Assembly: GCF_004010195.1 (NCBI RefSeq)
Contig: NC_057718.1
Location: 96,642,230 to 96,706,229 of the forward strand
Source of the DNA: Chiloscyllium plagiosum
Taxonomy: Eukaryota
Reading direction: 5' to 3'
Length of the DNA: 64,000 nucleotides
Shown in pieces: positions 43,520-46,201 of the stretch; within the stretch, counting starts at the first letter, position 1, and the number at the start of each line of letters is the position of its first letter. The notes under the pieces are model-generated. The model did not search any database. It was not told where the DNA came from and saw only the letters and a program-made list of their open reading frames with translations. Position numbers and translations under genes: made by a program.

Positions 43520-43915
43520 CGAAGTAACCGCACACGGGCCAGTTTCCCATCACCAAGTCACCCTTCAGCAAATTTAAAACAGAGTTGAGGGGAAACTACT
43601 TCTCCCCCAAGGGTTGAGAATCTGTGGGACTCGCTACTCCAGAATGTGGTGGGTGCTGGGACAGTGAGTAAATGTAAGAAGGAGTTAAGCATATTTTTTA
43701 ATTGGTAATGGGTTGAAGGGATATGGAGAGAAGGCAGGAAAATGGGGGTGAGGAGCATATCAGCCATGATCGACAGGCAGAGCAGACTCGATTGGCCGAA
43801 TGGCCTAAATCTGCTCCTATACCTTATGAGCTACACATGTACAGTACATGGGCTCTGACCAGCCAGCTCAGAGCCAGTCCCGAGACTGAGGGCACTCTCC
43901 GAATCTTCTGTTTAT
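43520..43915 (-). mobile_element. 3' half of a solo LTR, split by a CR1 3' fragment (43566-43829, +)
   Basis: ttcccatcaccaagtcaccc [CR1] tacacatgtacagtac...cagagccagtccc...aatcttctgtttat; homologous to the 12.4 kb and 51.9 kb LTRs. Confidence 0.7.
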
Positions 43916-45655
43916 TTTATTTTCTCTTCTTTTCATTTTTTTCTTCTCTTTTTTCCCCACATTGCCGCCTAACTGCGGTAGCGCCTATTTTATACCCCGC
44001 ACCCATGTTGTGTATGTGCAGGTGTGAGACACAGTGAAATCTTCTGGTTTTATTTACTCCTGTTTTTTTCTCTTTTTTTCCTGTTCTTTTTTAAATCTTT
44101 TTTTCTTTCTTTTTTTAAATTGCCCCCACACTACCACCTAACTGAAGTAGAGCTTATTTTTCTCCCCAGCACCCATGTTGTGTGTATGTGCAGGTGTGAG
44201 ACAAGCCGTACCCTTCACATGAAAGGGCAATGCTGTGTGATCAAACAGTGAAGGGGAGGGCAAATCTTCTGTTTATCTTTTTTTTCTCGTTGTTGATCAG
44301 AGTTGAAAAGCACAGCAGGCCAGGCAGCATCCCAGAAGCAGAAGAACCAATAACCTCTTCAACTCTTCATTCCTGATGAAGGGCTTATGTTCCAAATGTT
44401 GACTCTCCTGCTCCTCAGATGCTACCCGACCATCCGTGCCCCTCAAGCACCATCCTTTTATGATATAGGCATTTAGTCCAGAGTCAGTCCCCTTCCCCTC
44501 TGACACAATCAGGAGGAGAGTCCTTGTATACACATACCCTGGTCCAGCTCCCTCAGAGCCAGCTCCTCAGAGTAAACAGAACCTCTGACACTCCTTTTTT
44601 TTAGCACCCATGTTTTTTCTTTTTTCTTTTTCTTTTTTCTTTTTCTTTTTTTCTTTCTCCTTATTTTTTTGAAAAAATTTTTATTTAACCCCCACATTAC
44701 CGCCTAACTGCGGTAGTGCTTATTTTTTCCCCAGCACCCACATTGTGTGTGTGCAGGTGTGAGACACAGTGAGAGACACAAGGTGCACGAATCTTTATTC
44801 AAATTTCCACCACCAGGAAGAAAGGAAAATACCCGGGTAGCCAGTGACAAGCCATGCCCTTCACATCAAAGGGCAGTGCTGTGTGATCAAAATAGTAAAG
44901 GGGAGGGCAAATCTTCTGTTTATTTTTTTTTCCTGTTTATTATTTTATTAAACAAATTACAACAACAGTTTACAGGGGAGGGCAAATCTTCTGTTTATCT
45001 TTTTTTTCTCGTTTTTGATCAGAGTTGAGAGTGTGGTGCTGGAAAAGCACAGCAGGCCAGGCAGCATCCCAGAAGCAGAAGAACCAATAACCTCTTCATC
45101 TCTTCATTCCTGATGAAGGGCTTATGTTCCAAATGTTGACTCTCCTGCTCCTCAGATGCTACACGACCATCCGTGCCCCTCAAGCACCATCCTTTTATGA
45201 TATGGGCAGTTAGTCCAGAGTCAGTCCCCTTCCCCTCTGACACAATCAGGAGGAGAGTCCTTGTATACACATACCCTGGTCCAGCTCCCTCAGAGCCAGC
45301 TCCTCAGAGTAAACAGAACCTCTGACACTCCTTTTTTTTAGCACCCATGTTTTTTCTTTTTTCTTTTTCTTTTTTCTTTTTCTTTTTTTCTTTCTCCTTA
45401 TTTTTTTGAAAAAATTTTTATTTAACCCCCACATTACCGCCTAACTGCGGTAGTGCTTATTTTTTCCCCAGCACCCACATTGTGTGTGTGCAGGTGTGAG
45501 ACACAGTGAGAGACACAAGGTGCACGAATCTTTATTCAAATTTCCACCACCAGGAAGAAAGGAAAATACCCGGGTAGCCAGTGACAAGCCATGCCCTTCA
45601 CATCAAAGGGCAGTGCTGTGTGATCAAAATAGTAAAGGGGAGGGCAAATCTTCTG
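43916..45655 (-). mobile_element. stacked copies of a poly(A)-tailed element with a 3' hairpin (non-LTR 3' ends)
   Basis: four copies of ca(c/t)t(a/g)cc(g/a)cctaactg(c/a)(g/a)gtag...gcaggtgtgagaca at ~43960, 44128, 44693 and 45430, each preceded by a T-tract on the plus strand. Confidence 0.7.
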
Positions 45656-45711
45656 TTTATTTTTTTTTCCTGTTTATTATTTTATTAAACAAATTACAAC
45701 AACAGTTTACA
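44253..45711 (+). repeat. near-identical tandem duplication (722 bp + 737 bp)
   Basis: unit 1 is 44253-44974 and unit 2 is 44975-45711; paired ORFs offset by 737; unit 1 lacks ~15 nt in the PLE arm. Confidence 0.95.
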
Positions 45712-46099
45712 ACAAACTGTTACATTTACAGCTGCATACAAGAGACAGCAATTTTACAAGGGAGAGAAGCAGCAAAGCCAGGCCCCAAACCCTACCATTC
45801 AAACAATTTACAGGGACATGAAGACAAACCTCAAATCCCACCTTCTGTTTATTTTATTTTTCTTTTGCCTTTTTAACAGAATAACTTTATTTGTAAAACA
45901 TTTCAGAGTTGCAGCCCAGTTTATTTCTCACTGATTTGTTCTGGCATGCTCCTGATGATGGCAGAATCATCAGGATCAATGATAGCCAGTGTACACACTC
46001 TGTAGTATTTACCACAAGCTGTACCTAGTTCGATATTGTTGCCACTGTAATGATGCACTCCAGTCTTGGCTAACATAGCATAATACTCAATCTCCGACT

Positions 46100-46201
46100 A
46101 CCTTCTGTCAGCCAGGGCTCCCTGATTGGTTCAGGTTAACAACCCCTATCAGGCATCTCACAATCAATGAGATACACCTGGCCCTCATTCCAATCACTGC
46201 A
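46100..46201 (-). mobile_element. 5' half of a solo LTR
   Basis: ctgtcagccagggctccctgattgg...caatcactgca (reverse strand starts TG). Confidence 0.7.

Follow-up and report, generated by a model that had tools for sequence, protein, structure and literature searches.

In the 64-kb window analysed here (the whole stretch of DNA, 64,000 nucleotides), an LTR-like repeat is interrupted by a stack of other sequences. Read along the minus strand, the order is the 5' half of the repeat, a piece of RPL30, a piece that we call B, a hairpin piece (H1) with a passenger, two further hairpin pieces (H2 and H3) and the 3' half of the repeat. The stack contains five A-tailed insertions, all in one orientation and all at a single 11-14-nt word of the LTR-like repeat. 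We count five because a 737-bp tandem duplication accounts for two of the motifs. Judged from their sequences, the insertions appear to derive from at least three kinds of RNA, a host mRNA among them. The features are listed below in minus-strand order, followed by two intact relatives of the repeat; the basis of each assignment is given in brackets.

46104..46203 (-): host LTR-like repeat, 5' half, with a CCAAT box; ends ...CTGGCTGACAGA right before the TATA-like word (nhmmer; the true 5' end lies further out)
45921..46103 (-): RPL30 (eL30) coding piece, 5'-truncated, residues 58-115 and stop (PF01248, structure-chain match)
45853..45920 (-): short RPL30 3' UTR, AATAAA at 45891-45886, A-rich tail from 45874 (sequence)
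45842..45852 (-): target copy behind the RPL30 tail, 11 nt, equal to the start of the LTR 3' half (junction alignment)
45661..45841 (-): piece B, GT-rich and 3'-UTR-like, with AATAAA and a tail holding ATAAACAGG at 45677 (sequence)
45647..45660 (-): target copy behind B, 14 nt (junction alignment)
45333..45646 (-): hairpin piece H1 (about 232 nt) and A-rich tail (alignment)
45017..45332 (-): 3' passenger of H1, the 3' half of a second LTR subtype from the same TATA-proximal site, then flank inside a common repeat (alignment)
44985..45016 (-): A-run (45016-44999), read as added, and the 14-nt target copy closing the H1 insertion (junction and repeat alignment)
44252..44974 (strand not applicable): tandem duplication, second copy, containing the motifs at 44923 and 44276 (alignment)
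44052..44262 (-): hairpin piece H2, with the 5' start of H1 and an internal deletion; tail with AACAGG (44085) and AACAGGAGT (44064) (alignment)
44038..44051 (-): decayed target copy, a variant of the motif (sequence reading)
43916..44037 (-): hairpin piece H3 (3' 82 nt) and A-rich tail (alignment)
43822..43915 (-): host LTR 3' half, its first letters being the target word (homology to the intact relative)
43520..43570 (-): host LTR end, lying beyond an unrelated repeat (43570-43822) that cuts it off from the 3' half
51726..51999 (+): intact related LTR-like copy with unbroken CTGACAGAT-ATAAACAGGAGTGTC, the empty-site reference (homology, motif search)
12366..12612 (-): second intact relative, its site diverged (TTAAAAGGACGAG) and unoccupied (homology)

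The broken repeat and its recurring word

Both halves of the broken repeat match the intact repeat at 51.73-52.00 kb in an nhmmer search within the window, the 5' half (46194-46092) with an E-value of 2.5e-12 and the 3' half (43916-43827) with one of 4.9e-4. The 5' half also matches the 12.4-kb copy (E 3.3e-10). At the break the two halves are in register, and the break point falls between CTGACAGA(T) and ATAAACAG.

To call the repeat an LTR and the word its TATA box is a fair reading of the anatomy: a CCAAT box, a TATA-like word (TATAAA) and TG...CA ends can all be recognized, and the 12.4-kb copy has an AATAAA further downstream. By reading, the TG...CA ends and the promoter and poly(A) motifs occur in order in both intact relatives (51.73-52.00 and 12.37-12.61 kb). 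A flanking duplication of 4-6 bp was found for neither intact copy, and the broken copy has one candidate 4-mer, which is at chance level; no gag-pol internal region was found beside the LTR-like copies in the window. An extra 5'-half fragment of the same family lies inverted at 12165-12223 (+), about 150 nt from the intact 12.4-kb copy. The window as a whole is repeat-dense, with one short repeat family present in 18 copies, and RT fragments lie at 23.7, 48.2 and 51.3 kb.

The word at the break recurs throughout the stack. The motif ATAAACAGRAG has seven matches in the 64-kb window against 0.09 expected, and none of 100 shuffles gave seven or more. Six are minus-strand copies spread across the stack at 43.9-45.9 kb, where the exact ATAAACAGAAG starts at 45852, 45660, 44998, 44923, 44276 and 43915; the seventh, at 51874, is the TATA-like box of the intact relative. 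Directly upstream of the six stack junctions inspected, stretches of 30 nt are 53-67% A. With up to one error allowed, the motif stands behind seven of ten A-tracts inside 43.8-46.2 kb and behind none of 30 outside. A preliminary description of this DNA had proposed that an LTR is broken at its TATA-like word by an A-tailed stack in which the motif recurs with A-tracts, and on both points the motif counts, the nhmmer halves and their register agree with it, coordinates included. In wider collections the LTR motif has no match in viral contigs and two in metagenomes, both of them chance when judged by their flanks.

Anatomy of the inserted pieces

The 5' end of the RPL30 piece abuts the 5' half of the host LTR directly, giving the minus-strand order LTR, RPL30, tail, target. 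The piece matches PF01248 (1.8e-08), and 55 of its 58 amino acids are identical to the eL30 chain 8q7z_Bc (E 5.3e-33). All 58 codons are uninterrupted, and a stop codon stands directly before the first of them. With the 3' end of a coding region, a poly(A) signal and a tail, it has every appearance of a 5'-truncated copy of a host mRNA. The uninterrupted codons presumably span the last intron of vertebrate RPL30, and the start of the piece, at about codon 56-57, we take to be the vertebrate exon 3/4 boundary (AG/G). Ribosomal-protein genes have introns (PMC554972). On its 3' side RPL30 has a target copy of 11 nt; its 5' side reads ...GACAGA-AG, a remnant at best. The AG at this junction (46095-46105, minus strand) may belong to the mRNA or, if 10 nt have been lost, to the end of an 11-nt target copy. 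Parts of the region 45390-46400 occur in 20 of 24 runs in a comparison of word sharing; at least half of its words occur in eight runs, all of organism A, and six runs of organism B have shares of 0.39-0.41, figures that say nothing about the junctions.

Piece B, of about 155 nt, is single-copy in the window except for its duplicated end. It is unrelated to the hairpin piece and would be either the tail of a LINE or a host mRNA. In its tail, ATAAACAGG corresponds to the target start of the other LTR subtype, and the tails of B and H2 hold short remnants (AACAGG or AACAGGAGT) of that subtype's target. Because AACAGG is frequent, with 62 occurrences in the window, we use it as supporting evidence only.

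The hairpin pieces H1, H2 and H3 are 85-91% identical over the four pairwise stretches compared, and because they are no more alike than this they would be separate insertions. The window has three independent H pieces, and each of them is at the site; they share one locus, and the passenger records one further locus. H1 and H2 both begin ATAAACAGAAGATT-TGCCCTCCCC. Though about 90% alike, they share the start base behind the target (45646 and 44262, minus strand), and a common start base is not predicted by independent 5' truncation. Truncation may favour this point, or H may be a short non-autonomous element whose 5' end is fixed; it may also be a truncated LINE tail. No copies of H or B were found elsewhere in the 64-kb window, and the H motif has no match in metagenome collections. 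Folding of the hairpin was not significant (z -0.3 to -1.9), and compensatory change was seen at none of nine pairs among only three distinct rows; neither result supports H as a conserved RNA structure. An Rfam scan of 43400-46400 gave three matches, all below the gathering score and none of tRNA, 5S, 7SL or snRNA type. Rfam thus gives H no Pol III or snRNA-derived head of the kind expected of a SINE.

The passenger behind H1 is 315 nt long, about 250 nt of it flank. Its LTR fragment (44600-44539; duplicate 45337-45276) is 87.5% like the 51.9-kb copy from the TATA-proximal GGAGTGTC on. Identity of the passenger LTR half to that copy is 87.5-87.9%, against 70.5% to the host LTR half; on the strength of 87.9% against 70.5%, the passenger LTR would therefore derive from another locus. 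Among the 17 rows of the passenger's repeat, seven continue ATCT(C/T)CAG where this row turns to A's, and none of the 16 other rows has an A-run at the switch point. The A-run thus looks added rather than genomic. H1, LTR half and flank form a block bracketed by two 14-nt target copies, for which the best reading is 3' transduction, the donor H having lain at the same word of another LTR. Evidence to the contrary is that the passenger tail is not preceded by AATAAA. A 10-nt fragment of H (CATGGGTGCT) interrupts the A-tail of H1 immediately ahead of the passenger LTR half (45341-45350 and 44604-44613).

The tandem duplication (44252-44974 against 44975-45711, 737 bp) aligns with 717 matches, five mismatches and one 15-bp gap, and spans the end of B through the target copy that closes the passenger. 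The six differences are confined to a stretch of about 190 nt in the passenger flank, and the remaining 502 nt, with a low-complexity tail among them, show none (rough P 0.006). Clustering of this sort in 44252-45711 suggests gene conversion or a haplotype mosaic. It is possible that the duplication is an artefact of assembly, against which stand the five substitutions and the 15-bp gap between the copies.

The preliminary description had attributed two of the motif recurrences to a tandem duplication, as the alignment bears out. It had also taken all the tailed pieces for the same element. That part fails, RPL30 being to all appearances an mRNA copy and B being unrelated to the hairpin piece. 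The second LTR fragment that it described does end at the same register but is a passenger inside one insertion, not an LTR residing here.

How the stack may have grown

Is the recurring word part of an inserted element, or is it the target? Matches to the start of the LTR 3' half at the junctions run to 11, 14, 14, 14 and 14 nt, with one junction decayed. What follows the motif is one of four unrelated sequences, namely B, the beginning of H, a point in mid-H or the 3' half of the LTR. Because it precedes unrelated sequences, it is a duplicated target and not the element's own head; because it also stands behind a host mRNA, it is not an element consensus either. LINEs insert by target-primed reverse transcription. 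A poly(A) tail, a fixed orientation and register, and a target-site duplication are all found in the stack, and repeated target-primed insertion is almost certainly how it arose. A weak hint that the 3' pieces came first is given by the decay of the target at 44051 and by an RPL30 protein that is still nearly intact; the geometry of the stack is compatible with either direction of insertion.

What confines the insertions to one word is probably a sequence-specific enzyme. Nicking seems to be sequence-specific because five events share a register, adjacent A-tails were left unused (none of the long A-tails within the stack has itself received an insertion) and the break in a second LTR falls at that point too. 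The enzyme would accept foreign poly(A) RNA, because RPL30 has its own tail and a target copy. On balance, and with modest confidence, we favour a sequence-specific LINE enzyme, likely of the Tx1 clade, which repeatedly nicked the word and reverse-transcribed whatever poly(A) RNA was bound. Given such an enzyme, RPL30 was very likely placed by it too. The bottom strand would be nicked opposite the start of ATAAACAG, with priming on the poly(A) tail of the RNA, and a second nick would follow 11-14 nt downstream. Because the second nick would rebuild the target each time, the stack could grow. The donors of H1, H2 and B would themselves have occupied this site elsewhere, within different copies of the LTR, and their transcripts would have run slightly or far past it, leaving the tail remnants and the passenger. 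Relaxed toward RNA, the enzyme would have taken a host mRNA in trans. The outermost 5' junction is without the TATA word, either through the loss of 10 nt between two AGA triplets or through truncation of the target at insertion; because the word is lost there, this end should no longer be re-usable.

In the stack itself no ORF2, reverse transcriptase or endonuclease was found, the four ORFs overlapping 43.2-45.9 kb having no Pfam match. Of the window's 55 long ORFs, 12 were scanned with Pfam; three of these contain RVT_1, and all three lie outside the stack. The favoured reading also draws on one locus only, and the intact 51.9-kb copy, whose word matches, is unoccupied, which counts against it.

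Could a less discriminating enzyme have built the same stack? A promiscuous L1-type endonuclease might favour the T/A step in an open LTR promoter, site duplication doing the rest, and RPL30 would then be an ordinary L1 retrocopy. Target duplications of 11-14 nt, as found here, are typical of L1. The bottom strand, GTTT/AT, resembles the L1 consensus TTTT/AA (PMC1950540), so a generic L1 could have placed RPL30, and ribosomal-protein mRNAs are reported as the top L1 retrocopy parents in mammals (10.64898/2026.06.26.734816). We nevertheless think such a hot spot unlikely: five insertions fell in one register despite better A-rich sites alongside, the word is absent from the 30 A-tracts outside the stack, an LTR of a second subtype has its break in that register too, and the tail remnants point to donors that had occupied the site before. 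Alternatively the origin may be mixed: H, perhaps together with B, would be site-specific, and RPL30 would have come through another promiscuous LINE, a template switch or a compound RNA from another locus. This account draws on the want of a clean 5' target copy at RPL30, a point that also counts against insertion of RPL30 at the target. Passengers demonstrably moved within the stack, and template switching and 5' additions are described for Tx1 and SINEU (PMC4494074). Set against this are the AATAAA, the tail and the target copy in exact register that RPL30 has of its own and the position of its 5' end next to the host LTR half; a template switch would leave neither tail nor target between RPL30 and B. 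We judge a mixed origin to be quite improbable.

Two further accounts were weighed. The array might have grown by DNA recombination with the motif as the head of the hairpin element, which would explain the beginning common to H1 and H2 and is in keeping with the existence of one DNA-level duplication. Yet the motif is also found in the intact relative, the copies are 85-91% alike with differing tails, and three of the five junctions contradict the account, which makes it very hard to sustain. The preliminary description had itself named membership of the motif in the element's own consensus as the outcome that would overturn its reading; its place before B, at two points of H (one of them mid-H, at H3) and before the LTR 3' half excludes this. 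Scarcely credible, finally, is the capture of RPL30 through LTR-retrotransposon template switching of the type of Tan et al. 2016. The mechanism is reported across animals (PMC5131818), and RPL30 is flanked by LTR sequence with AG microhomology at the 5' junction, but it sits inside one LTR at the common register, and its AATAAA, A-tail and target copy are hallmarks of target-primed insertion. Of the earlier proposal that an undescribed element targets the LTR promoter, repeated insertion into one regenerated target survives, and a single element does not, given at least three kinds of RNA.

Comparison with known target-specific systems

What would such an enzyme mean for its host? It is quite possible, though a little short of probable, that a vertebrate LINE strict toward DNA and relaxed toward RNA delivers ordinary poly(A) mRNAs of the host, in sense orientation, to the TATA word in an LTR promoter. 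If so, this genome's retrocopies would be guided to a promoter already in place, and the enzyme would amount to a natural tool for writing any poly(A) RNA into a specific site. Should the 5' target copy normally survive, the cargo would land just behind the CCAAT and TATA boxes of the LTR. A host mRNA in exact register at a reused target would be direct locus-level evidence for a site-specific enzyme making processed pseudogenes, and the question becomes countable in one assembly. Kojima (2015) took flanking of more than 20% of copies by one target as the mark of target specificity (PMC4494074). In a 2026 preprint the count of retrocopies in cartilaginous fishes is 14,081, and the link drawn there between non-mammalian retrocopies and CR1/Tx1 content is purely correlative (10.64898/2026.06.26.734816).

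In its targeting the stack adds one more example to a published pattern, that of the LTR-targeting Tx1 families (PMC4494074). What the locus adds is an RPL30 retrocopy at the target and a transduced second site, the host mRNA at the target being what is new; in a search that took in few subscription journals and no Repbase Reports, no paper was seen to describe a protein-coding retrocopy at the target of a Tx1 element. The stack works like a Tx1 target stack, and its membership of the Tx1 clade is putative. The nearest counterparts are Tx1-8_Crp and Tx1-4_AMi, crocodilian Tx1-clade LINEs with a preference for LTR retrotransposons (Kojima 2015, PMC4494074). As here, non-LTR insertions are concentrated in LTR retrotransposons, and tandem insertions are mentioned for the related SINEU; unlike here, as far as that account goes neither a position in the LTR nor a host-mRNA copy at the target is given. 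SINEU-1/2/3 resemble the present pieces in another respect. According to the same source, Tx1-Mar likely moves these RNAs, which have no recognised LINE tail, to its target in trans, where they stack, often in tandem (PMC4494074). They are snRNA-derived repeats in Mariner, whereas the cargo here is a protein-coding host mRNA, found once, in an LTR.

Tx1L of Xenopus laevis, which resides in Tx1D and nicks a single site in it, shares a sequence-specific APE-type endonuclease aimed at another transposon; its target is a DNA transposon, and as far as that account of the element goes no retrocopy at the target is described (PMC1950540). The processed pseudogenes and 3' transductions of mammalian L1 provide the other half of the likeness, a 5'-truncated, tailed mRNA copy with a target duplication and a read-through passenger, but they lie at dispersed TTTT/AA sites and not, like the five insertions here, at one word (PMC3747384, PMC2912911). 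Target-specific LINEs studied in cells (TRE5-A, SART1 and others) are described as requiring their own 3' end, in contrast to the relaxed L1, which inserts broadly. TRE5-A of Dictyostelium is, like the proposed enzyme, a position-specific L1-like element; it is stringent, and its host genome is without processed pseudogenes, the opposite of what we propose here (PMC3159450).
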